15,563 bases of DNA from a virus. Each line of letters begins with the position of its first letter. Position 1 is the first letter of the stretch. The notes under the pieces are model-generated. The model was not told where the DNA came from. It did no database searches and saw only the letters and a program-made list of their open reading frames with translations. The translations under genes and the position numbers were made by a program. This document shows positions 1 through 15,563 of this stretch, piece after piece. Location of the stretch: the IMG/VR virus record IMGVR_UViG_3300042562_001768; one strand, given 5' to 3'.

Positions 1-127
1 GGGGGGGTGGGAGGTCTTTGGGGAGGTCATGCAAGCCATCGAACGGCACGATCCGCGAGCCCAGGGAGACCTGCCCGGACAGCGCCGCGTCGTGCGTCGG
101 CGCCTGGATGAACTCGGCATCAAGGAC
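1..127. repeat. Terminal direct repeat, copy 1; exact duplicate of 15437..15563 (circular-closure overlap or terminal redundancy)
   Basis: Read directly: the first 127 nt (ggggggg tgggaggtctttggggaggtcatgcaagcc ... ctcggcatcaaggac) recur exactly as the last 127 nt of the window. Confidence 0.9.
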
Positions 128-280
128 GGCGACGCGCGCGGCGCGTGGCAGCTCTTGGTCCGCAGTTGGGCCTCGACCGGGCGGCGCCCGTACGACCGCT
201 TGGTCGACCTGACTGATCGCCTGCAAGGCGCCAGAGACCCGCGCGCGGTCATCCTTGCGCGGATCAGGGAGGTCGCATGA
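2..280 (+). CDS. C-terminal part of the junction-spanning winged-helix initiator-like gene (same gene as 15027..15563 after wrap-around); the ORF track shows it as 29..280
   Basis: Position 2 corresponds to 15438 and is in the same frame as the ORF opening at 15027. The frame stays open to TGA at 278-280. The Met at 29 is internal to this longer frame. Confidence 0.6.
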   Translation, partial: GGWEVFGEVMQAIERHDPRAQGDLPGQRRVVRRRLDELGIKDGDARGAWQLLVRSWASTGRRPYDRLVDLTDRLQGARDPRAVILARIREVA

Positions 281-687
281 TGGACGAGCAGTGCAAATCG
301 TGCCAAGATTGGCGAGACTTGTTCGTGAGATCGAATCGTGAAAATCAGGAGCTCAGGCGCCTGAACATTGCATTCAACAGACCGGAGCCATCACCAGACT
401 TGCAGCAGGAATACAGAGAAATGAAGGTGCAGAACCGAGCGATGATGGACGTTCACAACCTTCTGGTGAAGGAACATGGCGAAGCCGTTCGCCAGGTACC
501 AGCCCTCAGCGCAACGATTGCACGCCTTAAGCGCGACATTGTTCTGATCCATCAGATCTGCACGCCGCGCCAACGCTACAAACTGAGGCGCGTCTTATGG
601 CTTGACCAGCAAGAAATCGAGCATTACCGCAAGTCGCTTCACCCTGAATACATGTACGGACACGGGAAGAAGAGAAAGACAGCATGA
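277..687 (+). CDS. Hypothetical protein (136 aa), basic C-terminus
   Basis: ATG at 277 overlaps the upstream stop (ATGA). ORF-track protein MMDEQCKSCQDW...GHGKKRKTA. The region is visibly lower in G+C than the structural genes (by eye, not computed). No motif recognised. Confidence 0.5.
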   Translation: MMDEQCKSCQDWRDLFVRSNRENQELRRLNIAFNRPEPSPDLQQEYREMKVQNRAMMDVHNLLVKEHGEAVRQVPALSATIARLKRDIVLIHQICTPRQRYKLRRVLWLDQQEIEHYRKSLHPEYMYGHGKKRKTA

Positions 688-779
688 TCGGCTTCATCTT
701 CGTGTCGTTCCTGCTCCTGTTGGCGGCAGCGCCATTCATCGCCATAGCCACACTCTTACCCTGGGAATCAGATGACTAA
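684..779 (+). CDS. Small hydrophobic peptide (31 aa), putative single-pass membrane protein
   Basis: ATG at 684 overlaps the stop of the previous gene (ATGA). My translation is MIGFIFVSFLLLLAAAPFIAIATLLPWESDD, ending at TAA 777-779, and overlaps the next gene start at 772. Below the ORF-track length cutoff. Confidence 0.3.
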   Translation: MIGFIFVSFLLLLAAAPFIAIATLLPWESDD

Positions 780-1023
780 GAAAGAACTTGAGTCCATCCG
801 CCACGAGATCGCCGTCCTCAAGCGCGAGGTCGAACTCCTGCGCGACACCAACCTCGCGCGCGTGACGTACGGACGGCCCGTCATGGTCGTCCGTCGCGAC
901 AGCATGGGCGTGCACTTCGAAGACGCGCCACAACGGCGCGACACCATCGAGGATCTTGCCGCCGCGCACCGATGCGTAACCGATCGAGACATCGAGCGCG
1001 CGATGTATGCGGGGGAAGGATGA
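772..1023 (+). CDS. Hypothetical protein (83 aa)
   Basis: ORF-track frame MTKKELESIRHEIAVLKREVELLRD...; the next gene starts at 1020 overlapping its stop. No motif recognised. Confidence 0.5.
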   Translation: MTKKELESIRHEIAVLKREVELLRDTNLARVTYGRPVMVVRRDSMGVHFEDAPQRRDTIEDLAAAHRCVTDRDIERAMYAGEG

Positions 1024-1511
1024 GCCTTCCCACCAACAGCCGTATGAAGGGCAAACGGGGCGAACTGGACGCTGCCGCGCACCTCACTGAGTTGACCAGG
1101 TGGAAGTGGGAGCGCACCGCGCAACGCTGGGGCAAGGCCACGGCGGACGTTTGGTGCCCGCGCGCGCCCGCTCTGTTCCAGTTGCACGTGGAGGTGAAAC
1201 TGTACGGGCGCGGACTGGCCAAGCTTCACACCGCGGCAGCGGCGTATCCGCTGGTGGTCACGCGCGATGGCCTGCACATCTGCGAGCTCAGCCGCCTGCG
1301 CGTCCAACTGCTCAGGCTTGGCCCGCCGAACGTCACCTTGAGCGTTCACAACACGACCGCCGCCTTCATGCGCCAGGCAGTAGCCGACGCGTCAGGCGTC
1401 ACGCCGCTCGTCCTCATGCGACAGGACCGACACCCGTGGCTGGCAGTCTGGCGAAGCGAGGACGAGGACCGAGTCGCCTACCAACTCGACCAGGTGTGGA
1501 ATGAGACGTGA
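1020..1511 (+). CDS. PD-(D/E)XK-type nuclease, Holliday-junction-resolvase-like (Hjc/RecU-like pattern)
   Basis: ATG at 1020 overlaps the upstream TGA at 1021-1023 (ATGA). The N-terminal region MKGKRGELDAAAHLTE...ADVWCP...FQLHVEVK fits the G-x-x-x-E ... D ... (hydrophobic)3-E-V-K pattern of Hjc-like PD-(D/E)XK nucleases. Judged by eye only. Confidence 0.5.
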   Translation: MSLPTNSRMKGKRGELDAAAHLTELTRWKWERTAQRWGKATADVWCPRAPALFQLHVEVKLYGRGLAKLHTAAAAYPLVVTRDGLHICELSRLRVQLLRLGPPNVTLSVHNTTAAFMRQAVADASGVTPLVLMRQDRHPWLAVWRSEDEDRVAYQLDQVWNET

Positions 1512-1776
1512 GCCCCAATGCATCCACGCGCGCAAGGCGCCCGTCGTGCGGTCAGCCCACACTGGCAAGGGCAGTGGTCGACCGATGTTTCGGTTGAGTC
1601 GGACCACGCGCGCCAACCATCCGATGTGCCAGGAGAACTGCGGTCGACCATCGACCGAAGTGCATCACATCGTTCCTTGGTCCGAGTCAGTCGTGCTGCG
1701 GCTCGACCCAAATAATTTGGTCGCAGTTTGCCGTGACTGCCATGAGCGTTTGGAGGCGCTGCGGCTGACCAAGTAG
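1501..1776 (+). CDS. HNH endonuclease
   Basis: Protein contains C-x2-C ... EVHHIVP ... NNLVAVCRDCHERLE, the HNH zinc-finger and catalytic His pattern. ATG at 1501 overlaps the upstream gene by 11 nt. The true start could be a later in-frame Met (1585 or 1624). Sits immediately upstream of large terminase. Confidence 0.8.
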   Translation: MRREPQCIHARKAPVVRSAHTGKGSGRPMFRLSRTTRANHPMCQENCGRPSTEVHHIVPWSESVVLRLDPNNLVAVCRDCHERLEALRLTK

Positions 1777-1800
1777 CGATCCGTTTTTCAATTATGAGCC

Positions 1801-1822
1801 CCCCCCTATAGCCCCCCTATAG
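1801..1822. repeat. Tandem direct repeat, 2 x cccccctatag, in the HNH-terminase intergenic region
   Basis: Read directly: cccccctatag at 1801-1811 and again at 1812-1822, preceded by two more C and followed by cgagggg. Confidence 0.8.
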
Positions 1823-1868
1823 CGAGGGGTTTGAAGTACCTACGAGGTCAACCCACGGATAAACGCCG

Positions 1869-1911
1869 CCAATGCATAAGGAAAACACCCCCAATGCATA
1901 AGAAAACGCCC
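1869..1911. repeat. Tandem imperfect direct repeat (22 + 21 nt) overlapping the terminase ribosome-binding site and start codon
   Basis: ccaatgcataaggaaaacaccc (1869-1890) is followed by ccaatgcataagaaaacgccc (1891-1911). The ATG of the second copy (1894) is the terminase start; AAGGA at 1878-1882 lies 11 nt upstream. Confidence 0.7.
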
Positions 1912-3609
1912 ATCAGACGGTCACGCAAAGCGCCCGCCGGAGCGCTCCAGATTGCGGACGCCTACGCTCACGAAGCGCTGAAGGGCAAGCGCTACAACAC
2001 CCGCATCCGCGCCTTCAGTTCCCAGTGGCTGGCCGCGCGGGCGGCACCAAAGTCGGCTGGTTACGTGTGGGATGAGGAGCGCCTGACCAGCCTGGTGGAG
2101 TACGCGCGGGAGCGGTTCAAGATCACGCTCCTGCCGTGGCAGTACCTGGCCTTCGCCACGCTCGTTTCGTGGCGCGATCAGGCCGACCTTCCGGTGGTTC
2201 GGGTGTTCGCGATACAGGTCGCGCGGGGTGCGGGGAAGACGGAGATGGTGGCGATCCTGGCGTCTTGGCTGGTCGAGTGGACCGCGCGCGCGGGTCGTTC
2301 GCCGATCGAGATCGTGGTGCTCGCGACGCAGATGGAGCGCGCCAAAGACGTGTGGCTTCGGCAGAAGGTCAGCCTCGCGGACGACCCGTCCTGGCGCCTG
2401 GTCGGTGGTCTGTCGTCGCTCGTCATTGCCGCGGCCCACCACGCTGGCGGGGTGGTCAAGTGCAAGCCATCGACCCCTAAGAACGCGGACGGAATCCTGC
2501 CCACGCTCGTCGTCTTGGACGAGGCGGCGCGCATCGAAGACGAGACCTACGCGCGCGCGCTCAGTTCGATCAGCAAGGTGCCAGGCTGCCAGGCGCTGAT
2601 CGTTACGACGCCGGACAAGGATCAGCGCCGCCGCGGATACGGCACGACCATCGGACTGCTGGAGCGCGCCTACGACGAGAACACTTCGCCGCCGCCAGGG
2701 ATCGCCGGGATGATCTTCGGCATCGACACCACCGATCGACCGGACGATCCGGAGGCGTGGTACAAGGCGCACCCCAGCCTCGGCATCACGAAGCAGCTCA
2801 GCGACTACACGCTCGGCAAGGCGCTGCTCTTGGATCCCGGCGCACCGAACGATCGCGACGAGTTCTACACCCAGTTCCTCGCGACCTTCACGGATGACCT
2901 GGCCGGTGCCATGCCGCTAAGTCTGTTCGACGCGTGCGTCGAGGACTGGGATCTCTCCGACTTCCGCGGCTTCCCGGCAGTGGTCGGAGTCGACTTCAGC
3001 CAGGGCGGTTGGAGCGGTCAGCAGACGGACCTGACCTCGATCAATGTGTCGGTGTGGGACGGCGTCCGCATCCGCTCCAGGTCGTACCACTACTGGGCCG
3101 GGACCAACATCGAAGCGGACGAAGTCAAGTGCCGACAGCCGCTGCGCGAGTGGCGGGACGCGGGTCTCTTGGAGGTCTGCGGCAACACCATTGACTACTC
3201 GCTACTGGAGGCGCGGACCATCGCCATCGCGTCGATCGTTGACCTGCGGCACTGGGTCGCGGACCCAGCAGGGAAGGCGCCCGCCTGGTGCGAGGCGATG
3301 GAGAAGCGACACGGATGGCGCTGGTCGCGCGCTCCTCAGTCGCACATTTACATGGGCTCGGCGTGGGCAATTTGGAGCGACGCCGTGCGCGGTCGGCGCA
3401 TCCAGTTCGCACCCGATCCGGTGCTCCGCGCGAACCTGTCGCACACGCGCGCGGTGCCAACCGACCGAGGTCTGAGCGTGCCAAGCAAGGGGCGCAGCAC
3501 CAGCAACATCGACGCCGTCACCGCGTGCTGCATGTGCATCAAGGTGCTCAACGATCGCGAGCTCATGACCGAGAGTCTGTACGGCGACCCGGGCAAGATC
3601 TCCTTCTGA
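1894..3609 (+). CDS. terL: Terminase large subunit
   Basis: Long ORF with a P-loop-like segment VFAIQVARGAGKTEMVAILASWLV and a Walker-B-like LVVLDEAARIEDE, followed by a C-terminal nuclease-sized region. ATG at 1894 has an AAGGA Shine-Dalgarno; the ORF-track start at 1831 is a TTG extension. Followed by portal and capsid genes. Confidence 0.9.
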   Translation: MHKKTPIRRSRKAPAGALQIADAYAHEALKGKRYNTRIRAFSSQWLAARAAPKSAGYVWDEERLTSLVEYARERFKITLLPWQYLAFATLVSWRDQADLPVVRVFAIQVARGAGKTEMVAILASWLVEWTARAGRSPIEIVVLATQMERAKDVWLRQKVSLADDPSWRLVGGLSSLVIAAAHHAGGVVKCKPSTPKNADGILPTLVVLDEAARIEDETYARALSSISKVPGCQALIVTTPDKDQRRRGYGTTIGLLERAYDENTSPPPGIAGMIFGIDTTDRPDDPEAWYKAHPSLGITKQLSDYTLGKALLLDPGAPNDRDEFYTQFLATFTDDLAGAMPLSLFDACVEDWDLSDFRGFPAVVGVDFSQGGWSGQQTDLTSINVSVWDGVRIRSRSYHYWAGTNIEADEVKCRQPLREWRDAGLLEVCGNTIDYSLLEARTIAIASIVDLRHWVADPAGKAPAWCEAMEKRHGWRWSRAPQSHIYMGSAWAIWSDAVRGRRIQFAPDPVLRANLSHTRAVPTDRGLSVPSKGRSTSNIDAVTACCMCIKVLNDRELMTESLYGDPGKISF

Positions 3610-3674
3610 GAATCTCCGCCGCACTGCAACGGGAACCCATTGACATCGCTGCCGCGATTGTTGTTACTACTCGC

Positions 3675-4796
3675 ATGAACCGTCTGTTCAAGCTCTTCGG
3701 CTTCAAGTCTGCACCGATGAATATCGGTTGGGACTCTCCGTCGAACTACGTCCGAGCAGACGTCGCGGCGCTGCCGTCCGTGCAGCGATGCATGAACCTG
3801 ATCGCGAACGATGTCGCGCGCTGCCCACTGGTGGTGCGCGACGCCGAGCAGATGATGGTCGAAGACTCGACGATCACCGCGCTCTTTACGAATGCGGCGC
3901 AGGCCGAGCTAAGCGGAACAGACTTCCGCCGATGGATGGCTTCGGAAGCGCTGCTGTCTGGCAACGCCTTCGCGCAGATCGTGACCGACTCGATGGGCCA
4001 GCCCGTCGCGTTGCGTCCGCTGGCGAGCTCAGCCGTCAGCCTGAACGAAGACAGTAACGGCGTGCTGCATTGGACCTACTCCGGCACCGAGATCGACTAC
4101 GCCTCGATGCTGCACTTCAAGGGTGCGCCGAGTCCAGGGAATCCGTACTGGGGCACAAGTGTCCTGAGCGCTGCGGCGACAAGCCTCGACGCAGTCGCGC
4201 AAACCGAAGCAGCCTGGAACGCATACACCCGGAGCGGCGGATACGGCAAGCTTGTCTTCAGTCATCCCGGCGCTCTCCAGCCTGCGACCCGCGACGCCAT
4301 GCGGACCGCCTTCATGTCGGGACACATGACTGCCGCCGCAGCGGGCACACCGATCTTCGTCGGCGAAGGGATGACCGTGACCGCGCTCTCGCCGTCGTGG
4401 GGCAAGGACATGATCGAGCTCCGCGCCGCGGGCGCGCGCGTGGTCGCGAACATGTTCGGCGTACCAGCCGCGTACCTCGACATGAGCGAGGCGCGCACGC
4501 AACCAGAGATCGCACAGTCGTACGTCTCGTCGTGCTTAGAAATCTGGGCCACGACCTGGGAAGCGGAGATCAGTAACAAGCTCTTGCGACCTGGTCTTCG
4601 TGTTCGTTGGGACTGGTCGCCTGTCTTGGAAGGAGACTTCCGAACCGCTGGCAAGGCGTACGGAAAGTTCGTCGAGGTCGGCGTGCTCAGTCCGAACGAC
4701 GTCCGCGTTCGCCTTGGCTACTCGCCGCTGCCTGGTCTCTGGGATCCGAGGCCAGTGATGAGTGGCATCACCATCGAATCGGACGGTCTGCAATGA
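3675..4796 (+). CDS. Portal protein (HK97-like family)
   Basis: 373-aa ORF directly between terminase and prohead protease; MNRLFKLFGFKSAPMNIGWDSPSNYV... First in-frame ATG after the terminase stop; the ORF-track start at 3288 lies inside terminase. No clear Shine-Dalgarno, so the start is uncertain (alternative ATG at 3717). Confidence 0.8.
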   Translation: MNRLFKLFGFKSAPMNIGWDSPSNYVRADVAALPSVQRCMNLIANDVARCPLVVRDAEQMMVEDSTITALFTNAAQAELSGTDFRRWMASEALLSGNAFAQIVTDSMGQPVALRPLASSAVSLNEDSNGVLHWTYSGTEIDYASMLHFKGAPSPGNPYWGTSVLSAAATSLDAVAQTEAAWNAYTRSGGYGKLVFSHPGALQPATRDAMRTAFMSGHMTAAAAGTPIFVGEGMTVTALSPSWGKDMIELRAAGARVVANMFGVPAAYLDMSEARTQPEIAQSYVSSCLEIWATTWEAEISNKLLRPGLRVRWDWSPVLEGDFRTAGKAYGKFVEVGVLSPNDVRVRLGYSPLPGLWDPRPVMSGITIESDGLQ

Positions 4797-6403
4797 TGCG
4801 AGAACTCCGCGCACAACTGGCACCGACTACCGACGGGACGGTCCGCGGATACGCGGCGCTGTTCGACTCTTGGTCGCTGCCGATCACCGAGCGCGGACGC
4901 ACGTTCCGCGAACGCATCAAGCCGGGCGCACTACAGCCGGACGGGAACGTCTCACTGTGGTGGATGCACGACCACACCGACCCACTCGCGAACACGCGCA
5001 GCGGATCGCTCACGATTACAGAGGACGCGAAGGGGATCGCATTCGTAGCCGACTTGGGTACGAGCGCGCGCGCGGACGAGATCCGCGACCTCATTCGCCG
5101 CGGGGTGGTCGACCAGATGTCGATCGGCTTCGTCGCACTCTCAGATATCTGGGACGGCAATACGTCCCGCACGATCACTAAGGCCACGCTCCATGAGGTG
5201 AGTTTGGTCGAATCGGCTGCGTACCCCGGTACGTCAGCAACCGTCCGCAACCACCAAAGGAAACCCGCTATGTCCGTCAAAGAAGATCGTGCTCGCATCG
5301 CCGAGCTCAACGCTGAATACAACACCGCTACCGATGAGCGTCAGTTCGCCATCATGGACGAAGTCGCAGAGTGTGAGGAGCGCATCGCTGGCGCCCAGGC
5401 TGCATTCACCAACCGCGCCGCCACACCGTTGGCAGTCGCACCGTCGGCACCGCTTGCCGTCGTTCGTCGCATCACGCCTCCAGTCCGTGACGAGCAGCGC
5501 GAGTGGTTCCGCACTGGCTTCAAGCAGAACCGATCCATCGGTCTGAGCGTGACGGGTGGCAACGCTACCGCCGGGCAAACTTTGCCGACCCTGAGCGGTG
5601 AGTTCATCAAGGCGCTCGACCAAGAGTCCGTGATGCGTAGCCTCGCAACCGTCGAGACCCGTGGACTCGATACCGATATCCAAGTGATCGGCACGCGCCA
5701 GACCGCTGTTCTGCTGGCAGAAAAGGCGGCGTACACATCGACCGACTTCACCGCGACCAAGCTCTCTTTCAAGAGCTACAAGTCCGGCGCGCTGACCGAC
5801 GTCACGGAAGAGGCCTTGCAGGACACCGTGTGGGATGTTGCGAGTCAGGTAGTCAGTGAACACGGTCGCGCTCACTCGCGACTCTGGGAGAACTACTACG
5901 TAAACGGTACCGGCACTTCCCAGCCGCAAGGCGCGTTTGCTGCGACCTGGACAACGACGTACACCACGGCGGCTGTTGGCTTGCCAACGGTGGCGGACTT
6001 GGTCACGGCTGCGTACAAGTTGCCAACCCCGTACCAGGCGAACGCGTCCTGGCTCATGCACTCAACTGTTTGGGCTGCGGTCGTCGGCAGTGCGGCCAGC
6101 GGCAAGTACCTCCTGAACGGTGAGAACGGGAACATCCTCAAGGACGGGGCCGTCGCTCTGTTCCTCGGCAAGCCTGTCTACCTCAGCGAGTGGGCACCAT
6201 CGGCAGCAACCGCTGCTACGGTGTCGTGCCTGTACGGTGACTTCAAGGCGGGCTACCGAATCATCGACCGCTCGATGCTGAGCTTCACCGTTGATGATGT
6301 GTCCCAGATGTCTAACGGACTCATCCGCTACACCAGTCGTATGCGCTCCGACGCCAAGGCCGTCGACGCGACCGCGATTGTCCCGGTCGTCATCAAGACC
6401 TGA
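4793..6403 (+). CDS. Prohead (capsid maturation) protease fused in frame to HK97-type major capsid protein; internal ribosome-binding site and ATG at 5270 may also give stand-alone capsid protein
   Basis: ATG at 4793 overlaps the portal stop (ATGA). The N-terminal ~159 aa (VRGYAALFDS...WWMHDHTD...VDQMSIGFVALSD...LHEVSLVESAAYPGT) match the HK97 prohead protease pattern. From MSVKEDRARIAELNAEY onward it is a coiled-coil delta region followed by a capsid-protein-like body ending ...DATAIVPVVIKT. No stop codon separates the two parts. AAGGA at 5257-5261 precedes the in-frame ATG at 5270. Confidence 0.85.
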   Translation: MMRELRAQLAPTTDGTVRGYAALFDSWSLPITERGRTFRERIKPGALQPDGNVSLWWMHDHTDPLANTRSGSLTITEDAKGIAFVADLGTSARADEIRDLIRRGVVDQMSIGFVALSDIWDGNTSRTITKATLHEVSLVESAAYPGTSATVRNHQRKPAMSVKEDRARIAELNAEYNTATDERQFAIMDEVAECEERIAGAQAAFTNRAATPLAVAPSAPLAVVRRITPPVRDEQREWFRTGFKQNRSIGLSVTGGNATAGQTLPTLSGEFIKALDQESVMRSLATVETRGLDTDIQVIGTRQTAVLLAEKAAYTSTDFTATKLSFKSYKSGALTDVTEEALQDTVWDVASQVVSEHGRAHSRLWENYYVNGTGTSQPQGAFAATWTTTYTTAAVGLPTVADLVTAAYKLPTPYQANASWLMHSTVWAAVVGSAASGKYLLNGENGNILKDGAVALFLGKPVYLSEWAPSAATAATVSCLYGDFKAGYRIIDRSMLSFTVDDVSQMSNGLIRYTSRMRSDAKAVDATAIVPVVIKT

Positions 6404-6421
6404 TTACTTGCCATCCTCGCA

Positions 6422-6449: not shown

Positions 6450-6464
6450 AGCGCAAGGGGAACT

Positions 6465-6737: not shown

Positions 6738-6740
6738 ATC

Positions 6741-9063: not shown

Positions 9064-9661
9064 GTTCAAGTCAGTCCTCACCCTGACCGCGGACAGTTCC
9101 GGCGTCACCGCCGGAGTTAACCAGGCGATGCAGTCCCTCAACAAGTTGCAAGGCGGGATGTCCGCGCTGACATCGCTCGCGGGCGTCGGCTTTGCCATCG
9201 GCATTGGCAAGCAACTCTTCGGCGCAGCCACCGACGAGATGGCACGGATCAAAGACCTCGCGCACTCCTTCAGTCCGGAAGGGATGCGCGGCGCCAACGC
9301 CATGAACATGGCGACCCAGCAGGCGGACATGGCTATCGGCAAGGCGTTCGGTCCGATCGTGGAAGCGATCGACCAGGCATCCGTCGCAGCGATCAAGGAA
9401 CTGACCACGTTCATCATCGAGCACAAGGACGAGATCGGGATGGCGATGATCTATCTGACCGAGGTCACGCACGTGGCAGCAATGGCTATGGCAGAGTTCC
9501 TCGTCGGTCTGGGCAAGACCGTCGAGTGGCTGCATAACTTCATGGACAATCCACTACAGGCGACCGCCCAACTCGCTGGCGATGTTGCGATGCAGGCCAG
9601 TGGCGCCAACCTCGTCATCGGTATCTATGACCTCCTCAAACAGAAATTGGGTGGCACATGA
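9053..9661 (+). CDS. Tape measure protein candidate, unusually short (~202 aa)
   Basis: Ala/Gly/Met-rich, apparently helical protein with a hydrophobic segment ALTSLAGVGFAIGIGKQLFGAA, at the tape-measure position after the chaperone-like ORFs. ATG at 9053; an alternative GTG lies at 9023. Confidence 0.45.
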   Translation: MANEFKSVLTLTADSSGVTAGVNQAMQSLNKLQGGMSALTSLAGVGFAIGIGKQLFGAATDEMARIKDLAHSFSPEGMRGANAMNMATQQADMAIGKAFGPIVEAIDQASVAAIKELTTFIIEHKDEIGMAMIYLTEVTHVAAMAMAEFLVGLGKTVEWLHNFMDNPLQATAQLAGDVAMQASGANLVIGIYDLLKQKLGGT

Positions 9662-10611: not shown

Positions 10612-11111
10612 CGTACGAATGGCCGATCTTTACCGAAGGGCTTTACGGCAAGGCGAACGCCTCGGTGTGCAACGCCTGGACGCAATCGGCGCGCATCGTG
10701 CTATCAAGCGCGGAGGCGCTCGACTGGGCGAACCGAACGAAAGACGGTATGGACCAGCCCGATCGGTGGCTTGCGAAGGTCACGGGCGCAGCAGTCATCA
10801 GCAGTAATCGCTGGTCGTACACCTTTGTGCCTGTCATTATCTCCGGCACGACTACCGCGAACCTATCCGGCACTGGCCAGGCTGGCTCCGGCGCCTTGAA
10901 CTTGCGCGAGATGAACAACACCACAATCCTCGCGGATGGTTCGCCGCTCGCGAGTGGCGTGACCATCGGTCCCGTCGGCTCCACCTGGGGCGGATCGAGT
11001 TGGTCTACGAGTTCGCTGACTGGAATCGTCGAGATGAACGTCGAACATAAAGCCGACGGCAGCGTCGCGTATTGGTTTTCCTCACCGAACCCTGGGAGAT
11101 GTGCAACATGA
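10608..11111 (+). CDS. Minor tail protein, Gly/Ser/Thr-rich
   Basis: 167 aa from ATG 10608 (ATGA overlap); the ORF-track start at 10566 lies inside the previous gene. Low-complexity GTTTANLSGTGQAGSG and SSWSTSS segments are typical of fibre-like proteins. Confidence 0.5.
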   Translation: MTYEWPIFTEGLYGKANASVCNAWTQSARIVLSSAEALDWANRTKDGMDQPDRWLAKVTGAAVISSNRWSYTFVPVIISGTTTANLSGTGQAGSGALNLREMNNTTILADGSPLASGVTIGPVGSTWGGSSWSTSSLTGIVEMNVEHKADGSVAYWFSSPNPGRCAT

Positions 11112-12415
11112 AATACGACGTAATCCGGTCATACTGGCCAGCTCCGATCTACGACACGCCTCTTCCTGCTGGCGTTTATGGCAGTATGCGGGCGTTCAAC
11201 TTCATACGGGAAACCACTACCAAAGGGCTAGACGTAGCAATCGTTGGAGACAGCAACACGGGCTACAACGCTCCGAACGATGGCGGTTACGTTCAAGGCA
11301 TTTCCTATGGTTTGGATGTTGCGTTCCCTTCAAATGCTTACGCCACCGCTACGTTTACGCTGATGAACGAAGGGAACTCTGCTGGCTACAAGTGCTCAAT
11401 GCAAGGCGCATCACTGGCCAGCGCACCGGGTGGCTACGTTTCGGGAAAAGCGAGCGGCGACGCGGGTATTAAAACTTTCTTTGACCGTGGTAGTGGAAGT
11501 TGGAGTGATGCGGGCGGCGCGAACGCAGGGACGTACACGGATTTCCCATGGCTTGAATCGGGAAATCAAACCGAGAACATTAACCGTGGTATGACAATCG
11601 ACTCAGATCACCCCATCGGCGTAAACAACGCGCTCCGATATAGAGTCCTGCGGAGTCAGACCACAACGGGCGGCAGTTTCTATATGCGCGTTCGTCTGAA
11701 TGGTGGCTCATATGCACCGATTGCCACATCGGCTTCGATCCCTTGCAGTGGCGCAACTAATCTAGTTGCATCAGAACTACCGATCACTGTTGGCACTCGC
11801 AATCTGTCCTTGGCTTCATTCTGGAGCATCCAAAACGCAGTTGGTCTTTACACGGTCGGCCCGTGGGGCGGTTTGTTGCAATCGATGTACCGCCCAACAG
11901 TTGGTTGGGCAGTGGATGCGATGTATTTCATGGGTGGTGCAACCATCACCGCCATCGATACAGACTTCGCCGCAGCAAACACCGCTGGGTATCTCACCGC
12001 CACCATGCTTGCCGAGTATTACAACCGACAACTAGCGGCGGGTGGGGATGGTCGCATCGTTGTTTGGATTCAAGGCGGAGCCAACCAAAGCGACTGGACA
12101 TCGAGTCCAAGCACATGGCCAGCAAAGTGGGAATCCATTATGAATTACGTCCGCACAGCAGCCACATACGCCGCCATACCTTCGGAGAAGTTGGCATTCG
12201 TTGCGATGTGTACGCATGACATCACGGGTTATGACTTTGCTTCTAGGCGAGCCGCGCTCATCGCATTGACTACTGCAAACCCTGATCTAACGGTAGTCAA
12301 CATTCCGGAGATTATTCCGTTTGCTTCTTACTCTGCCTATGCAAGCGGAGCGCACTTGTCTAAGACCGGATACCAAACGATTGGCAATGCCATTATTCAA
12401 CGGATGCTTTCTTGA
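11108..12415 (+). CDS. SGNH/GDSL-like hydrolase (esterase/deacetylase-like) protein, tail-associated or lysis enzyme
   Basis: 435 aa from ATG 11108 (ATGA overlap). Block-I-like VAIVGDSNTGYNA near the N-terminus and a block-V-like ASGAHLSKTGYQTIGNAI near the C-terminus, with a long Gly/Ser/Thr-rich insert between. The Asp three residues before the His is not conserved (SGAH), so catalytic integrity is uncertain. G+C visibly lower than the head genes. Confidence 0.45.
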   Translation: MKYDVIRSYWPAPIYDTPLPAGVYGSMRAFNFIRETTTKGLDVAIVGDSNTGYNAPNDGGYVQGISYGLDVAFPSNAYATATFTLMNEGNSAGYKCSMQGASLASAPGGYVSGKASGDAGIKTFFDRGSGSWSDAGGANAGTYTDFPWLESGNQTENINRGMTIDSDHPIGVNNALRYRVLRSQTTTGGSFYMRVRLNGGSYAPIATSASIPCSGATNLVASELPITVGTRNLSLASFWSIQNAVGLYTVGPWGGLLQSMYRPTVGWAVDAMYFMGGATITAIDTDFAAANTAGYLTATMLAEYYNRQLAAGGDGRIVVWIQGGANQSDWTSSPSTWPAKWESIMNYVRTAATYAAIPSEKLAFVAMCTHDITGYDFASRRAALIALTTANPDLTVVNIPEIIPFASYSAYASGAHLSKTGYQTIGNAIIQRMLS

Positions 12416-12714
12416 TCCACCTAGCGGTCGTCATCCTCACGTTCCTCCTGTCAGCCTGTGCATCGAGCACGGCGCAGATCGCGCACGCAGCCAACGCGTC
12501 CCGCGTCTCGGTCGGCGCCGCGCGCGGACACCTGGTCGCCGCCAGCGCGGAGCTCGACCAGATAGAGGCTCAATGCCAGGTGGTGAGCGAGCAGATCCCG
12601 TACGTCTCTGATGATGTGCCGAGCTACATGTCGGTTCTTCAGTACGCCAGTGTTGCCGTCGTCGTCTTCGTCGTTGGCAGTCTCATCTACACCTACATAC
12701 CGCGGAAGAAATGA
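12412..12714 (+). CDS. Membrane protein with N-terminal lipoprotein-type signal (lipobox LSAC) and C-terminal transmembrane helix; lysis-associated candidate
   Basis: TTG start overlapping the upstream stop (TTGA). MIHLAVVILTFLLSAC ASST... has a hydrophobic h-region followed by L-S-A-C. The C-terminus ASVAVVVFVVGSLIYTYI PRKK is a hydrophobic helix with a basic tail. No in-frame ATG near the N-terminus, so the start is uncertain. Confidence 0.4.
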   Translation: MIHLAVVILTFLLSACASSTAQIAHAANASRVSVGAARGHLVAASAELDQIEAQCQVVSEQIPYVSDDVPSYMSVLQYASVAVVVFVVGSLIYTYIPRKK

Positions 12715-12839
12715 TGCTGACCCAAACTCAATATCTGATATGGCTCGTTGCGATTCTCGTCACGACAGCGGCTGCGGGGTGCCGAGTTGGCGCCACTTGG
12801 TCGACCTTCAAACATCAAACAAAAAAGGCTCGCAAATGA
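12711..12839 (+). CDS. Small single-pass membrane protein (42 aa), holin-like candidate
   Basis: My translation is MMLTQTQYLIWLVAILVTTAAAGCRVGATWSTFKHQTKKARK: one hydrophobic helix and a basic C-terminus. ATG overlaps the upstream stop and the next start overlaps its stop. Below the ORF-track length cutoff. Confidence 0.3.
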   Translation: MMLTQTQYLIWLVAILVTTAAAGCRVGATWSTFKHQTKKARK

Positions 12840-12949
12840 TTACGCAAGCAGACCTCTCCAGTACCCTCGGCTCAATTTTCTTCGCGACCAGTCTCGGATT
12901 CGTGGGCTTGATACTTGGTTACATCCTGTGCCGCCGGGCAAGCAAATGA
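12836..12949 (+). CDS. Small single-pass membrane protein (37 aa), holin-like candidate
   Basis: MITQADLSSTLGSIFFATSLGFVGLILGYILCRRASK, the C-terminal part of ORF-track ORF 12611..12949, whose N-terminus overlaps the previous genes. ATGA overlaps at both ends. Confidence 0.3.
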   Translation: MITQADLSSTLGSIFFATSLGFVGLILGYILCRRASK

Positions 12950-13707
12950 GTCTGCTTCGGTGTTGCTGCGGTAGCGCAACCTGTGCATCCTGTCCATCGT
13001 TACCAGGCGACTGGTCGACGCGGGACTATCGTTTGTTCATACCAGCAGTCAAGCCTGTTGGATATGGTCGCGCGAGTTCAGTGCCGAGCGGTCTATACAC
13101 CGGGCCCTGCACGCCAGCGGATCCGTACTGGAACTTGGCAGAGTGTGCATTCGACTTTACCACTGGCTCGCTGTACTACGTCTATTCTCGACTCGCAAAC
13201 TGCGAGCCCTTTCCAGAAGCTTGCGGCGAAGTCTTAAAGTTCCCGCGGGAGATCGGTGGCTTCTATACGGACAACCTTGTCCCGTCGATTACGTTCTCTA
13301 CGCAGATTGCCACGCGCACATACAACCAAACAGGCGACGTTTCATATTTCATCCAGGCGGACGTATCGCGATGCTGGGGCGGATGGGCTGGGTGTGAGAG
13401 TTGCACCAACCGAACCAAGGTCAGCCTCTACTACTTTTTTGGCAACAACTTCACATACAACGACAACTGCACAAACCATCCTGCTGGTGTTACAAAGACT
13501 GTGGAGCTGGAGTATCTCTCGAATCCTTACGCCGCAAGTGAAGGCATCGGAAAAACTTGCTACCTCAGAACCTGGAAAGTGAGCCCTGGGCCGACAGCCT
13601 TCTGCTACCCGGAAACAGGTCAATATGGCTGCGCTGATCCTTGCGTCCTTGGATCGTGTTCGTTCTTTGGATCAAGCAACTTTCCCTCAACGGTAACAAT
13701 CGTATGA
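12946..13707 (+). CDS. Cysteine-rich protein (18 Cys in 253 aa), unknown function
   Basis: ATG at 12946 overlaps the upstream stop (ATGA); the ORF-track start at 12748 is an upstream extension. N-terminal MSLLRCCCGSATCASC cluster and Cys spread through an aromatic/Asn/Thr-rich body. G+C at third codon positions visibly lower than the head genes. Confidence 0.6.
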   Translation: MSLLRCCCGSATCASCPSLPGDWSTRDYRLFIPAVKPVGYGRASSVPSGLYTGPCTPADPYWNLAECAFDFTTGSLYYVYSRLANCEPFPEACGEVLKFPREIGGFYTDNLVPSITFSTQIATRTYNQTGDVSYFIQADVSRCWGGWAGCESCTNRTKVSLYYFFGNNFTYNDNCTNHPAGVTKTVELEYLSNPYAASEGIGKTCYLRTWKVSPGPTAFCYPETGQYGCADPCVLGSCSFFGSSNFPSTVTIV

Positions 13708-13910
13708 AGATCCCAGGACAGATTGAGGCGTCGGAACATCAACCGCCCGCGCGCATAGGTCTCGGCGACGCCGTGGCAGCAGCCACAAAGGCTGTCGGGG
13801 TCAAGCCTTGCGGCGGATGTGCCAAGCGCCAGGCGGCGATGAACCGGGCGACGCCAGCCTGGGCGCGGCGGGCGCTTGGTTGGTGGTCGCGGCATTTCGG
13901 TGTACCGTGA
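13704..13910 (+). CDS. Small protein (68 aa) with a GDAVAAATKAVGVKPCGGCAKRQAAMNR motif
   Basis: ATG at 13704 overlaps the upstream stop (ATGA). The CxxC-containing segment looks like a conserved small-protein motif, but I cannot name the family. Confidence 0.45.
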   Translation: MKIPGQIEASEHQPPARIGLGDAVAAATKAVGVKPCGGCAKRQAAMNRATPAWARRALGWWSRHFGVP

Positions 13911-13914
13911 CCAC

Positions 13915-14220
13915 ATGTCCACAATCCGTCAAGCTCTTCGGGGAGTCGATCGCCGCCGCGATGAGTGGTGGATGGTTCGGCGCGACTCGGACCCGCCAGG
14001 GGTCTGGGCTTTGACGCTCGATCCGAGTGCCGGGGACTGGGACTGGCGCGTCCGCGCAGTGACCAATATGCCTTTCATGAAGCGGCGCATAGCCTCGGCA
14101 AAGATTCTCTCCGATAAGCAGGGAAGATTACTTGAATTGCGACGAATGGTCGATAGGATGCGCGGCGCGATGGTGGCGCGGGGGGATGACGCGGCTGCGA
14201 GGACTCCGAGTGGAGTTTAA
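13915..14220 (+). CDS. Hypothetical protein (101 aa)
   Basis: First ATG after the upstream stop; MSTIRQALRGVDRRRDEWWMVRRDSDPPGVW... No Shine-Dalgarno seen. The 3' half is AT-richer and contains promoter-like hexamers, so the coding assignment is tentative. Confidence 0.4.
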   Translation: MSTIRQALRGVDRRRDEWWMVRRDSDPPGVWALTLDPSAGDWDWRVRAVTNMPFMKRRIASAKILSDKQGRLLELRRMVDRMRGAMVARGDDAAARTPSGV

Positions 14221-14274
14221 CGTAACAGCCATAGCCGCGTCTCCCGATGGTCACCTCGCGCGGGAGATTCGCGC

Positions 14275-15027
14275 ATGGATGGCATCACGAAGCTTGCTGC
14301 GGCACTGGTCGCAGCCCAGAAGGATCTGACAAACCCCAAGTTTGATAAGCAGAATCCGCACTATCACAGTAAGTACGCATCACTGGCAGGCATTATCGAC
14401 ACGGTCCGCCCGGCGCTCTTAAAGCACGGACTGGCGGTGGTGCAACCGATCGAAACGGGGACCACATCCGGGACGATTCAGGTCCACACGATCCTGATCC
14501 ACACCTCCGGCGAGTCGATCAAGTCGACCCAGTCGGCACCGGCCCCAGGCGACCCGCAAAAGTTGGGCAGCCTGGTCACGTACTTGCGCCGCTATGGACT
14601 GTCTGCGCTGCTCATGCTGGCAGGGGACGACGACGACGATGCGAACGCCGCCGCGGCACCAACGCAGAAGACCCAGCAAACGCTTGAGCGCCACGTAGAG
14701 GCGTCCGCAGCGCTCTCCGGTGTCGAGAGAGCCATCGCAACCGCAGCCGCTCCTAGGGCATCCAAGGCGCCCGCGCGCGCTGCCGCCGCGAAGGGCATCC
14801 GAGTCGACGCAACGGTGAGCAAGATCGAGGAGCGCACCTCGGCGGCTGGCAAGGAGTACGCATGGATCCACACCGAGGACGCGGGGCGCCTCACATCGTT
14901 TGACAACATCGACGGGATGTCGGTCGGCGCGCGGTACACGTTCCTCCTCCGGAACGACCGCGACGGCAACCCGACGATCGTGGACGACTTCAGCGCTTGC
15001 GTCTCCGACGAGGAGATCCCATTCTGA
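14275..15027 (+). CDS. erf: ERF-family single-strand annealing protein (recombinase)
   Basis: N-terminal NPKFDKQNPHYHSKYASLAGIIDTVRPALLKHGLAVVQ, then DPQKLGSLVTYLRRYGLSALLMLAGDDDDD, which resembles the conserved core of ERF proteins. GGGAG Shine-Dalgarno 8 nt upstream of the ATG. Confidence 0.75.
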   Translation: MDGITKLAAALVAAQKDLTNPKFDKQNPHYHSKYASLAGIIDTVRPALLKHGLAVVQPIETGTTSGTIQVHTILIHTSGESIKSTQSAPAPGDPQKLGSLVTYLRRYGLSALLMLAGDDDDDANAAAAPTQKTQQTLERHVEASAALSGVERAIATAAAPRASKAPARAAAAKGIRVDATVSKIEERTSAAGKEYAWIHTEDAGRLTSFDNIDGMSVGARYTFLLRNDRDGNPTIVDDFSACVSDEEIPF

Positions 15028-15563
15028 TGCGCGTCGCCAAGCAACACATCCACATGGGAGAGATCTTCCGCTGCTCCGGACTTGCTCCGATGCAGCGTTA
15101 CCTACTCATGGCAATAGCCGATTACGGGCTCCCCGCCTGGCCGTCCCAGGCGCGCCTCGCAAACAAAACTGGACTCTCGCGATCCAGCATCAACACGATG
15201 GTGTCAGAGTTACGTCGCCTCGGCGTCCTTACGACGGAAGGTCGGGGCAAGTCTTTGACCTATCGAATTGACCTGTCTGGGAAGGGTGAGGTGTCGTCCG
15301 CAGCGACACCTCACCTGTCGTCCACAGCGACACCACCTGTCGTCCACAGCGACAGCAGGTGTCGCCCACAGCGACAGGGATCAGAACTCTCCAAGGAACT
15401 CTCCAATGAACCCTCCCAGTCCGCGGTGGAAACCGCGGGGGGGTGGGAGGTCTTTGGGGAGGTCATGCAAGCCATCGAACGGCACGATCCGCGAGCCCAG
15501 GGAGACCTGCCCGGACAGCGCCGCGTCGTGCGTCGGCGCCTGGATGAACTCGGCATCAAGGAC
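15027..15563 (+). CDS. Winged-helix DNA-binding protein, putative replication initiator with embedded iterons; truncated by the window edge and completed by 2..280 (229 aa in total)
   Basis: ATG at 15027 (TGATG overlap with erf stop). N-terminus MQRYLLMAIADYGLPAWPSQARLANKTGLSRSSINTMVSELRRLGVLTTEG is HTH-like. The frame is open to the window end and continues through the duplicated 127 nt. The Ser/Thr/Pro-rich linker is encoded by the iteron array. Confidence 0.65.
   Translation, partial: MRVAKQHIHMGEIFRCSGLAPMQRYLLMAIADYGLPAWPSQARLANKTGLSRSSINTMVSELRRLGVLTTEGRGKSLTYRIDLSGKGEVSSAATPHLSSTATPPVVHSDSRCRPQRQGSELSKELSNEPSQSAVETAGGWEVFGEVMQAIERHDPRAQGDLPGQRRVVRRRLDELGIKD
15285..15376. promoter_or_regulatory. 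Array of four 17-bp palindromic iteron-like repeats (tgtcgYccRcagcgaca), candidate origin of replication or operator
   Basis: Units at 15292-15308, 15316-15332, 15338-15354 and 15360-15376, spaced 24/22/22 bp. Each is an inverted repeat tgtcg-N7-cgaca. The first is extended to 12-bp arms (ggtgaggtgtcg / cgacacctcacc, 15285-15315). Followed by an AT-richer 11-bp direct repeat gaactctccaa x2 at 15384-15406. Confidence 0.55.

Follow-up and report, generated by a model that had tools for sequence, protein, structure and literature searches.

A very likely complete 15.4-kb genome of an uncultured siphovirus-like phage with predicted cos packaging

Small siphoviruses and the window genome

Fusion of the prohead protease with the major capsid protein has been reported as a hallmark that is common among unusually small siphoviruses (PMC7302621, PMC5513430). 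This size class comprises Rhodococcus phage RRH1 (14,270 bp), Arthrobacter clusters AN, AX, and FE (∼15.3 to 15.6 kb), Microbacterium cluster EE (17.0 to 17.5 kb), and Gordonia clusters CW and DM (PMC7302621, PMC5513430). With respect to DNA packaging, an HNH gene located directly upstream of the gene for the large terminase subunit (TerL) is described as a signature of the HK97-type cos phages (PMC9410871, PMC3592412). The HNH protein gp74 of HK97 stimulates cos cleavage, and the cohesive ends of that phage carry 3′ overhangs (PMC9410871).

The window analyzed here is the whole 15,563-nt stretch of the IMG/VR record IMGVR_UViG_3300042562_001768. Very likely, it represents the complete 15,436-bp genome (61.6% GC) of an uncultured siphovirus-like dsDNA phage, probably a virulent one, that uses cos packaging and whose circle was closed in the record with a k-mer-sized overlap of 127 nt. 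Among known kinds of phages, the window genome comes closest to the small-genome siphoviruses in which the protease and capsid genes are fused (14.3 to 17.5 kb); it is a new lineage, and miniature phages of this kind were already known. Similarly to the actinobacterial small siphoviruses, it falls into the same size class, has its genes transcribed in one direction, carries the protease, scaffold, and HK97-fold capsid in a single gene, encodes an HNH protein, and lacks an integrase or repressor. In contrast to those phages, the lineage is known only from metagenomes. No nucleotide similarity to the actinobacterial phages was detectable, and the TerL, portal, and capsid proteins are at most 24 to 30% identical to those of any cultured phage. 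The relatives compared here comprise a set with 84 to 99% nucleotide identity and a clade with ∼45 to 65% amino acid identity; their circular gene order is unchanged, and the family genomes span 15.3 to 17.4 kb.

Head and tail genes

The head module consists of the following genes, in addition to the TerL gene listed in the next section.

3675..4796, plus strand: portal, 373 aa (Pfam Phage_portal, 3e-56)
4793..6403, plus strand: 536-aa fusion of an S78 prohead protease, a coiled-coil scaffold linker, and the HK97-fold major capsid protein
6465..6737, plus strand: gp6-like head-tail adaptor, Ad1 (Pfam Phage_connect_1, 9e-5; PHROG 40, 2e-5)
6741..7070, plus strand: head completion protein (Pfam Phage_HCP, 2e-8)

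The fusion is a single open reading frame (ORF) that matches Pfam Peptidase_S78 (3e-28) in its N-terminal part and Phage_capsid (3e-41) in its C-terminal part, and it is present in all relatives. The connectors are followed by a block of tail-like genes.

7067..7846, plus strand: 259-aa protein, N terminus weakly HK97-gp10-like (neck or tail completion), C-terminal half very basic
7843..8247, plus strand: 134-aa protein, tail terminator by position only; 37 to 43% conserved in the distant clade
8247..8642, plus strand: probable major tail tube protein, 131 aa (p131); subthreshold tube match, tube-like fold
8639..8890, plus strand: probable tail assembly chaperone, 83 aa (Pfam Phage_TAC_7, E = 0.027, subthreshold)
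8890..9063, plus strand: 57-aa ORF shifted by −1 from the frame of the preceding chaperone gene, where a chaperone frameshift product would lie
9053..9661, plus strand: probable tape measure protein by position, 202 aa (p202), rich in Ala, Gly, and Met
9658..10611, plus strand: conserved tail-tip (distal tail or hub-like) protein by fold matches, 317 aa (p317)
10608..11111, plus strand: tail-tip protein by position, 167 aa (p167); 39 to 52% conserved across the family
11099..12415, plus strand: variable tail-associated protein, 438 aa (p438); GC content of 54%, replaced in close relatives

The sequence-only reading had credited this genome with a full head and tail module. The head part of that statement is certain, as TerL, portal, protease-scaffold-capsid fusion, and connectors all pass the Pfam thresholds. 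The tail part is probable rather than proven: no tail gene passes a curated Pfam or PHROG threshold, and the assignment comes from synteny, from subthreshold gp10, tube, and chaperone matches in the expected order, and from fold matches. The HK97-gp10_like match of the 259-aa protein (E = 0.003) is under the Pfam cutoff, and the 134-aa protein, p202, and p167 have no family matches. No canonical slippery heptamer was found for the 57-aa ORF. If each residue accounts for ∼0.15 nm, p202 would give a short tail, about 30 nm in length. For p317, which has no homolog in cultured phages, a high-confidence model gave tail-tip and hub-like proteins as the best fold matches. The p438 protein is a probable receptor-binding or SGNH-esterase-like fiber; one homolog, P0082, has a Phage_TTP_11 tail-tube domain at its N terminus (E = 6e-6), and another, P0085, shows a weak SGNH match (E = 0.013).

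The lack of tail genes over the curated threshold would also suit a capsid-forming satellite similar to cf-PICIs, with its own small heads and packaging and with tails borrowed from a helper phage. The 15-kb size is typical of satellites. Furthermore, among the cultured records, the capsid protein best matches that of the 16.5-kb vB_KppS-Ant, which itself resembles a satellite in its gene content (integrase, primase, capsid, portal, connectors, and terminases). Like such elements, the window genome encodes its own terminase, portal, protease, capsid, and connectors, and small-capsid packaging of ∼15-kb DNA would be expected. However, the vB_KppS-Ant match is only 29.5% identical, comes in two pieces, and is not syntenic, and the window genome lacks an integrase, a primase, or an alpA-type module. 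Unlike cf-PICIs, it has a conserved 5.3-kb post-connector block in the canonical siphovirus order, with the tube, chaperone, and gp10 matches, the tube-like fold, the tail-tip-like p317, and a variable distal cassette with a domain that occurs elsewhere as a fusion to a tail-tube domain; moreover, no integrated copy is known from 185,579 genomes. A satellite is therefore an improbable reading of this sequence, and a phage with its own compact tail is preferred.

The cos site and packaging

The packaging genes and the predicted cohesive end lie close together.

1501..1776, plus strand: HNH endonuclease, 91 aa (Pfam HNH, 8e-12; PHROG 144, 2e-12)
1800..1829, unstranded: candidate element for terminase recognition, a twin C-run motif (CCCCCCTATAG twice, followed by GGGG) shortly before the right end
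1840..1851, unstranded: predicted 12-nt cohesive end CTACGAGGTCAA; right end of virion DNA at 1839, left end starting at 1852
1861..1904, unstranded: two 22-nt direct repeats AAACRCCSCCAATGCATAAGRA from a repeat search, overlapping the TerL start
1894..3609, plus strand: TerL, 571 aa (Pfam TerL_ATPase, 9e-8, and TerL_nuclease, 5e-11; PHROG 9, 1e-58)

Nine of the ∼57 true contig ends fall inside the ∼120-nt spacer between the HNH and TerL genes (enrichment P of about 6e-9), and a further scan found 16 contigs that begin just upstream of TerL. In total, about 20 family contigs begin or end at homologous nucleotides in this spacer, and they come from many samples and from diverged lineages. For every one of the 12 TerL-side starts with a contiguous relative, the distance from the conserved ..(G/C)(T/A)AC, at which the right-end contigs stop, is exactly 12 nt. 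Three contigs (15,391, 16,284, and 17,008 bp) run from cos to cos, with TerL as the first gene and HNH as the last. For the strain of the window itself, the right end is seen directly in two contigs that end at 1839 (L003 and L004); the left end is placed from an 88%-identical relative (L008/L022) and from the family pattern. Because the contig ends cluster at one site with a constant 12-nt offset, the most likely form of the virion DNA is a linear molecule that has 12-nt cohesive ends beside the terminase gene. The overhang is probably a 3′ one, as in HK97, since contigs on both sides end without the 12-mer.

Two runs of 6 to 9 C residues are found at the equivalent position in all lineages despite sequence divergence. 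The 22-nt direct repeats are present in L005, L007, and L035, are absent in L022, and are confined to the window's own lineage; they are possibly a terminase binding or regulatory site. The HNH protein, encoded last before the cos site, is the presumed cofactor of TerL in cos cleavage.

The genome of HK97 is ∼40 kb long, and that of the window is 2.5 times smaller, with the protease fused to the capsid protein. The two share a TerL with the PF03354 and PF20441 domains, an HNH gene immediately upstream of cos and the terminase, and virion DNA with the terminase first and HNH last. They also share short cohesive ends with an apparently 3′ overhang, predicted here to be 12 nt long versus the 10 nt given for HK97 (PMC9410871). 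Whereas HK97 encodes gp74, TerS (gp1), and TerL (gp2), no TerS was recognized by Pfam or PHROG anywhere in the window genome, and none lies between cos and TerL.

This lack of an identified TerS or pac site, together with the circular assembly, would fit headful packaging of a circularly permuted, terminally redundant genome. Headful phages, however, have no preferred contig ends, whereas here the ends fall at homologous nucleotides with a constant offset and three contigs are exactly cos to cos. With the HNH-TerL arrangement as a further argument for cos (PMC9410871, PMC3592412), headful packaging appears quite improbable and cos packaging remains the preferred mode.

Replication and recombination genes

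These genes lie on both sides of the junction between the two ends of the window.

15027..15563, plus strand: replication initiator, 5′ part (229 aa in all), with N-terminal winged HTH (Pfam, PHROG); continues across the junction to 280
1..280, plus strand: replication initiator, 3′ part, stop codon at 278 to 280; a single 229-aa gene in L001, L002, and L004
15289..15376, unstranded: four ∼20-nt iterons with TGTCG-N7-CGACA cores, spaced 22 to 24 nt, in the rep linker (repeat search)
14275..15027, plus strand: ERF-family single-strand annealing recombinase, 250 aa (Pfam ERF, 5e-24)
1020..1511, plus strand: PDDEXK-type nuclease (Pfam PDDEXK_15, 3e-8; PHROG 244, 1e-11), annotated as a Holliday-junction resolvase via its PHROG match

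The initiator matches Pfam HTH_36 (7e-7) and MarR_2 (1e-6), as well as PHROGs 270, 345, and 391 (replication initiation O-like), the best at 7e-13. The iteron array is a putative origin of replication; arrays of three copies, with different sequences, occupy the equivalent place in rep in L040, L047, L050, and L055. The arrangement resembles phage lambda, in that a winged-helix DNA-binding domain forms the N-terminal part of the initiator, which has O-like PHROG matches, and the four dyad-symmetric iterons lie within the initiator's coding sequence, between its two domains. In contrast to lambda, no P-like helicase loader is recognizable, the GC content drops only slightly beyond the iterons (58%, compared with 62%), and recombination is via ERF and not Red.

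Lysis region and other small genes

The remaining genes are small.

12412..12714, plus strand: 100-aa lipoprotein, lipobox (LSAC) and transmembrane helix at the C terminus (hydropathy segments 1 to 24 and 69 to 98)
12836..12949, plus strand: single-pass membrane protein, 37 aa (hydropathy), holin-like by position only
12946..13707, plus strand: cysteine-rich (18 Cys) variable protein, 253 aa, no family match
13876..14220, plus strand: 114-aa family-wide protein, 40 to 52% identity in distant relatives, no family match
277..687, plus strand: 136-aa protein, no Pfam, PHROG, or NCBIfam match
684..779, plus strand: single-pass membrane peptide, 31 aa (hydropathy segment 1 to 29), called in L001, L003, and L004
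772..1023, plus strand: 83-aa protein, no family assignment

The 100-aa lipoprotein has the architecture of a unimolecular spanin, as defined previously (PMC6139136), and may function as one; its lipobox Cys and C-terminal transmembrane segment are kept in relatives. Such a protein suggests a host with an outer membrane, in contrast to the actinobacterial hosts of the other small siphoviruses. No endolysin or holin families were recognized in the genome, whereas cluster AN phages have peptidase and amidase lysins (PMC5513430). With TerS likewise unrecognized, the gene set explains packaging and lysis only in part. The 136-aa protein is not conserved in the ∼60% clade; tblastn did not find it in L018, L040, and other relatives.

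Genome ends and extent

The sequence-only reading had taken the window for a whole ∼15.4-kb tailed-phage genome written once with overlap, which is supported by the circles of the relatives, the contigs across the junction, and the lack of host flanks.

1..127, unstranded: left copy of the assembler overlap, inside the rep gene; single copy in independent contigs
15437..15563, unstranded: right copy, redundant; the unique genome is 1 to 15436

As that reading had stated, the repeat is exact: in a self-comparison, the longest end overlap is exactly 127 nt, beyond which the bases do not match. A match of this length cannot be due to chance. The ORF that it had traced from 15027 across the junction to the stop codon at 280 (alternatively from TTG 14997 in the circularized sequence) is confirmed as the initiator, which independent contigs call as a single gene. 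The junction is real DNA, because contigs from four independent assemblies (Logan SRR27335580, ENA ERZ27272054 and ERZ27272078, and JGI 3300033995) span it without a mismatch (100% identity), each containing the 127-mer once; the diverged IMG/VR relatives L007, L010, and L022 cross it as well.

Relatives with the identical gene circle have end overlaps of 108, 111, 123, 127, 127, ∼130, and ∼188 nt, the last two being imperfect. The values 108, 111, and 123 nt are not standard k values. These overlaps share no common site, being located within TerL, downstream of p167, or between the p202 and p317 genes; the 127-bp repeat is therefore not a terminal repeat but an assembler overlap, 127 being the largest k in commonly used assemblers. 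Of the two forms proposed earlier, circular or circularly permuted, the circle stands, as the cos-joined form, whereas permutation does not agree with the pileup of contig ends between HNH and TerL at the 12-nt offset. The size, which had been placed near the lower limit for siphoviruses, indeed compares with the smallest in the literature, RRH1 (14,270 bp) and Arthrobacter cluster AN (about 15.5 kb) (PMC5513430).

Continuation into a host chromosome, which the earlier reading had named as evidence against a free genome, was looked for, and no family contig carries host flanks. The scan of 185,579 species genomes revealed no integrated copies and only two short matching contigs in metagenome-assembled genomes (MAGs). 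The presence of two relatives in MAG bins could point to an excised prophage, an integrative island, or a phage-plasmid, as could the initiator and origin of the genome, which a plasmid-prophage would require too. However, the MAG contigs are 2- to 4-kb fragments without host genes, no integrase, partition, or repressor families were detected by Pfam, and all long family contigs are either no longer than one unit or wrap around (the sole contig longer than one unit, of 21,146 bp, is a 1.2-unit wraparound with a period of 17,352 bp). Such an origin is accordingly a shade more improbable even than headful packaging, and a free, probably lytic phage is preferred. A T7-like reading, in which the 127 bp would be a true short direct repeat at the fixed termini of a linear genome starting at position 1, has next to no probability: such a genome would likewise collapse to a circular assembly, and some relatives have overlaps of nonstandard length, but the repeat sits in the middle of rep at a site that the syntenic relatives do not share and matches the largest assembler k, while contig ends gather elsewhere in a 12-nt register and the HNH-TerL pair points to cos packaging.

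Predicted life cycle

The virion DNA would be linear, as in HK97-type phages, beginning with TerL and ending with HNH, and the HNH protein would assist TerL in cos cleavage. After injection, the 12-nt ends could anneal to form a circle, which would replicate from the iteron origin inside the initiator gene, as in the lambda O/ori system, aided by the ERF annealase and the PDDEXK resolvase. Transcription in a single rightward direction would then yield the terminase, portal, protease-scaffold-capsid fusion, connectors, and compact tail. The fusion protein can be expected to build a small HK97-fold head, perhaps of T=3 or T=4, and the tail would combine a tube, chaperones, the 202-aa tape measure protein, tip proteins, and a swappable receptor-binding cassette. 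Lysis would depend on a small region with the unimolecular-spanin-like lipoprotein, which suggests that the phage may infect a host that has an outer membrane.

Genome closure and completeness

The window, a 15,563-bp JGI/NCBI contig (P0077), carries exactly the same 127 nt at its start and at its finish (positions 1 to 127 and 15437 to 15563); this is the longest exact end overlap, and the bases flanking it differ. The non-redundant sequence comprises 15,436 bp with 61.6% GC, and in its circularised form an ORF that starts at TTG 14997 or ATG 15027 runs through the junction to a stop codon at 280. The identical ends and the junction ORF, both described in the earlier sequence-only reading, were thus reproduced. 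An exact match of 127 nt cannot be due to chance, and 127 is the top k value of commonly used assembly settings.

A look-up with the ERF recombinase protein led to contigs in four assemblies of independent origin (Logan SRR27335580, ENA ERZ27272054, JGI 3300033995, and ENA ERZ27272078). The near-identical metagenome contigs L001 to L004 match the window at 100% identity (99.99% in one case), and each of them crosses from position 15436 to position 1, the 127-mer being present just once. The contigs L007, L010, and L022, which represent relatives, likewise cross the junction. The relatives show end overlaps of their own, five of them exact (111, 123, 108, 127, and 127 nt) and two inexact (∼188 nt at 98.9% and ∼130 nt at 94.6% identity). 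These overlaps are scattered over the gene circle, being found within the terminase large subunit (TerL) gene, after the gene for the 167-aa protein p167, and between the genes for p202 (probable tape measure) and p317 (tail tip), while that of the window lies in rep, the gene for the junction-crossing replication initiator. A genuine 127-bp terminal repeat would be expected at one conserved site; since the overlap sites differ among the relatives, the 127-mer is an assembly artefact of a self-closing sequence. The exact overlaps of 123, 108, and 111 nt (L040, L041, and the 15,406-bp contig L010+L035, respectively) differ from the standard assembler k values.

Host genes flank none of the family contigs, and a scan of one genome per species (185,579 species) returned just two 2- to 4-kb fragments from bins of metagenome-assembled genomes (MAGs) and no integrated copy, so that in none of the genomes sampled does the element exist as an integrated prophage or island. 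A gene transfer agent-like cluster was also rejected, as the element provides for packaging and replication of its own genome, is self-closing, and lacks host flanks. The longest contig encoding family proteins, L055 (JGI 3300042480; 21,146 bp), wraps around over 1.2 units, its period being 17,352 bp. It carries the rep-PDDEXK-HNH-TerL genes at both ends and exceeds one unit, which is what concatemeric or circular read paths would produce. The reading of the window as one complete miniature tailed-phage genome, circularised through a k-mer overlap, is essentially right, given the independent contigs that cross the junction and the scattered positions of the overlaps. The 15,416-bp MEGAHIT contig of ERZ27272054 contains the entire circle except for 20 nt (684 to 703) at the start of a gene for a 31-aa membrane peptide; this gap is probably a graph break.

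Gene content of the family

Relatives in IMG/VR fall into one group with 84 to 99% nucleotide identity and a second clade with 45 to 65% protein identity, and the gene order is common to all of them. Their genomes range from 15.3 to 17.4 kb. Coding sequence makes up 96% of the window, with all 25 genes on the plus strand; GC3 frame analysis and gene calls on independent contigs agree on the gene coordinates.

Genes of the window with matches above curated thresholds (Pfam, PHROG)
15027-280 (across the junction), plus strand, O-like replication initiator
1020-1511, plus strand, PDDEXK nuclease (Holliday-junction resolvase in PHROG)
1501-1776, plus strand, HNH endonuclease
1894-3609, plus strand, TerL
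3675-4796, plus strand, portal
4793-6403, plus strand, S78 prohead protease and HK97-fold capsid in a single 536-aa ORF with a coiled-coil linker
6465-6737, plus strand, gp6-like adaptor
6741-7070, plus strand, head completion protein
14275-15027, plus strand, ERF recombinase

No window protein matched integrase, repressor, terminase small subunit (TerS), holin, or endolysin families, and tRNA, Rfam, and promoter/terminator scans of the window revealed nothing beyond chance. The full head and tail module credited to the window earlier is borne out for the head, which is proven by families above threshold; the tail part is only probable.

Predicted physical ends of the genome

Among the ∼57 true contig ends that were first collected, 9 fall in the ∼120-nt spacer between the HNH and TerL genes, which represents ∼1% of the genome (binomial P of ∼6e-9). 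A further scan for TerL added 16 contigs that begin 7 to 35 nt before this gene. Contigs reaching the right end (L003 and L004, both identical to the window, as well as L043 and L044) traverse the twin C-run motif, itself conserved, and terminate behind the conserved ..(G/C)(T/A)AC; left-end contigs start with CC(A/G/C).... A relative that is contiguous across the site is available for 12 of the 16 contigs with a left end, and in all 12 cases the start lies exactly 12 nt past the right-end stop. This constant 12-nt gap is seen in at least 6 lineages. In addition, three contigs (15,391, 16,284, and 17,008 bp) extend from the left end, with TerL first, to the right end, with HNH last, and show no overlap. 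In window coordinates, the predicted right end is at 1839, the 12-mer (CTACGAGGTCAA) occupies 1840 to 1851, and the predicted left end is at 1852; in the window's own strain, it is the right end alone that was directly observed.

Loss of coverage at a C-run/G-run palindrome was considered as the cause of this hot spot and rejected, because the right-end contigs cross both C-runs and stop 17 to 30 nt further on at the conserved ..AC, with the left ends exactly 12 nt beyond. In end repair, 3' overhangs are lost, whereas 5' ones are filled in and would then show at both ends. Since the 12-mer is absent from both contig ends, we infer a 12-nt cohesive end that is probably 3'. Judging from the same ends, the genome is very likely not permuted and has cos ends instead. 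Of the circular or circularly permuted molecule suggested in the sequence-only reading, the self-closing sequence stands, and the permutation is not supported, as the contig ends cluster at one site in a 12-nt register.

Several further features of this region were observed. The conserved twin C-run motif, within 1800 to 1852, precedes the end/start site of contigs from many samples. The sole mismatch between the window and the Logan contig L001 over their 9.6-kb overlap is apparently at position 1841, as deduced from contig comparisons rather than from a base-by-base alignment: the window has CTAC, and the 12-mer begins with CG in L001, L005, and all other lineages. This difference may reflect either genuine variation or a sequence error at a place where few reads bridge the cos junction. 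Directly after the predicted left end, two 22-nt direct repeats (AAACGCCGCCAATGCATAAGGA and AAACACCCCCAATGCATAAGAA) occupy 1861 to 1904, the second of which holds the TerL start codon; these repeats are restricted to the close lineage of the window.

Packaging module

The HNH protein gp74 of phage HK97 is reported to be encoded beside cos and the terminase genes and to stimulate cleavage by TerL, and the HK97 ends have 3' overhangs (PMC9410871; PMC3592412). The window resembles this type in having a TerL with the PF03354 and PF20441 domains, both above the curated cut-offs, and in the HNH gene (1501 to 1776) that adjoins the TerL gene (1894 to 3609), an adjacency kept in every relative. Unlike HK97, it has no recognisable TerS gene: none of the window ORFs matched a TerS family, and just 42 nt separate the predicted left end from the TerL start. 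Judged by its gene content, the packaging module apparently lacks TerS.

Putative replication origin

Four dyad-symmetric iterons of ∼20 nt, spaced by 22 to 24 nt, are located at 15289 to 15376 inside rep, between the regions encoding the winged-helix and C-terminal domains. Four diverged relatives have three-copy iteron arrays of different sequences at the same position in rep, a pattern expected if the initiator and the origin co-evolve. An iteron array within the initiator gene is the arrangement of phage lambda O/ori, which the window shares; no lambda P-like gene was recognised in the window. Behind the iterons, where GC is slightly lower (58%), a GAACTCTCCAA motif occurs in duplicate.

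Probable tail module

The 5.3-kb block that follows the connector genes is conserved in the family, and the tail-like signals in it are suggestive. None of its nine genes (7067 to 12415) has a significant match in Pfam, PHROG, or NCBIfam at default or relaxed thresholds. Sub-threshold Pfam matches were found at the expected positions, namely, HK97-gp10-like for p259 (E value of 0.003), Phage_tube_2 for the probable tail tube p131 (0.009), and Phage_TAC_7 for the probable chaperone p83 (0.027). The sizes and order of the genes fit the siphovirus canon, the predicted folds include tube-like and hub-like resemblances, and the tail region contains no sheath-sized gene. A non-contractile tail is accordingly quite probable. 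If p202 is the tape measure, the tail would be only ∼30 nm long, at ∼0.15 nm per residue.

Profile HMMs of the p131, p317, p134, and p202 families returned only noise from the PDB, and a search of 1.84 billion representative proteins with the p131 profile gave 14 matches, the 8 more distant, single-domain ones of which have no Pfam tail family. Alignment of the p131 profile (hhalign) with P0082, a metagenomic protein with a tail-tube domain, was not significant, and no slippery site of the XXXYYYZ type for a chaperone frameshift was found between the p83 and p57 genes. The C-terminal ∼150 residues of p259 (7067 to 7846) are extremely rich in Arg and Lys, and the DNA encoding them has a strong AT skew (0.25).

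The gene for p438, a variable tail-associated protein, has 54% GC and is swapped in close relatives. P0082, a homolog of p438, joins the p438 domain to a tail-tube domain of the lambda-like kind (Phage_TTP_11; E value of 6e-6), and another homolog, 36% identical, shows a weak SGNH match. These features of p438 fit a swappable fibre that would serve in receptor binding or as an esterase.

Putative lysis region, variable cassettes, and host

Downstream of the tail genes, a 100-aa protein is encoded at 12412 to 12714, with a lipobox (LSAC) at residues 13 to 16 and hydrophobic segments at residues 1 to 24 and 69 to 98; next to it is the gene for a 37-aa membrane protein (12836 to 12949). The lipobox and the C-terminal transmembrane helix of the 100-aa lipoprotein are kept in the relatives. 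A lipoprotein signal combined with a C-terminal transmembrane domain is the defining architecture of the unimolecular spanins of the T1 gp11 type (PMC6139136). The lipoprotein of the window has one periplasmic Cys residue, unlike the 58 unimolecular spanins surveyed in that study (PMC6139136). Neither the window nor any relative encodes a recognisable endolysin family. The spanin-like architecture suggests a host with an outer membrane, so that, as far as the protein sequences indicate, the host is likely to be a diderm. The two short MAG fragments from the genome scan described above belong to a Sandaracinus bin and a Verrucomicrobia bin, respectively, and are too weak to name a host.

Two cassettes, 11158 to 12413 with the 438-aa gene and 12972 to 13757 with a Cys-rich 253-aa gene, give way to unrelated sequence in relatives with 84 to 95% identity elsewhere. 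The stretch from 11099 to 13707 has 54% GC, versus 63% elsewhere, and several assemblies break there. The 253-aa protein (12946 to 13707) contains 18 Cys residues (7%), with a CCC and CxxC cluster at the N terminus, and has no family match in any library. The two cassettes look like exchangeable host-range modules.

Comparison with known phages

Megablast detected no match to the whole genome among 50,697 phage records, and the best identities to any cultured phage are at most 24% for TerL, at most 26% for the portal, and ∼30% for the capsid protein. The best capsid match, vB_KppS-Ant (16.5 kb), differs from the window in having an integrase, a primase, and separate capsid and protease genes and is not syntenic with it; this element looks like a capsid-forming satellite. 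Capsid-forming satellites of the PICI type feature an integrase and chromosomal integration, whereas the window has no integrase family match and no integrated copy. Such satellites also lack tail genes; in the window, the 5.3-kb block behind the connectors shows the suggestive tail-like signals described above.

The closest parallels in architecture are the small-genome siphoviruses of Actinobacteria, exemplified by RRH1 (14,270 bp), Arthrobacter cluster AN (∼15.5 kb), and Microbacterium cluster EE (17.0 to 17.5 kb), in which a protease-scaffold-capsid fusion is reported to be common, an HNH gene is present, and an integrase is absent (PMC5513430; PMC7302621). Similarly, the window is below 20 kb and encodes the S78 and Phage_capsid domains in one ORF. 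In sequence, however, it is unlike AN, EE, and RRH1: protein identities do not exceed 30%, and the best matches are to other phages. The resemblance is architectural, not phylogenetic, and the family is a new lineage of an already known kind of small siphovirus. The earlier placement of the genome close to the lower size limit of siphoviruses holds in that it is near but not below this limit, RRH1 being smaller. In a capsid model, T=3 heads hold 8.1 to 17.1 kb and T=4 heads hold 13.2 to 24.5 kb (PMC7762592); both ranges include 15.4 kb, so either head is compatible with this genome. Such a T=3 or T=4 head would be isometric and measure ∼43 to 50 nm.

Implications

With this uncultured lineage from dozens of metagenome samples, the few tailed phages near the lower size limit, a miniature class so far described mainly from Actinobacteria, gain a further member. 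A broader proposal is that these are the first recognised miniature (15.3 to 17.4 kb) autonomous siphoviruses of outer-membrane hosts, with a T=3 or T=4 fusion head, a tail of ∼30 nm whose proteins have no cultured relatives, 12-nt 3' cos ends produced by HNH and TerL alone in the absence of TerS, and lysis with no recognisable endolysin; taken jointly, these statements make up a tentative and rather doubtful picture. For sequence catalogues, a call of "circular with DTR" can mask a cos genome, and comparison of contig ends across samples can recover the true termini.

The phage draws moderate interest from its minimal cos siphovirus layout, its likely diderm host, and packaging apparently without TerS. 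The family presents the minimal gene set of a cos siphovirus in compact and almost fully syntenic form, with ∼25 genes and 96% coding sequence, and combines a fused protease-scaffold-capsid protein, HNH/TerL packaging apparently without TerS, and an unusually short tape measure. It can serve as a test case for what a tailed phage can dispense with and for the predictions of T=3 and T=4 capsids with the HK97 fold (PMC7762592).
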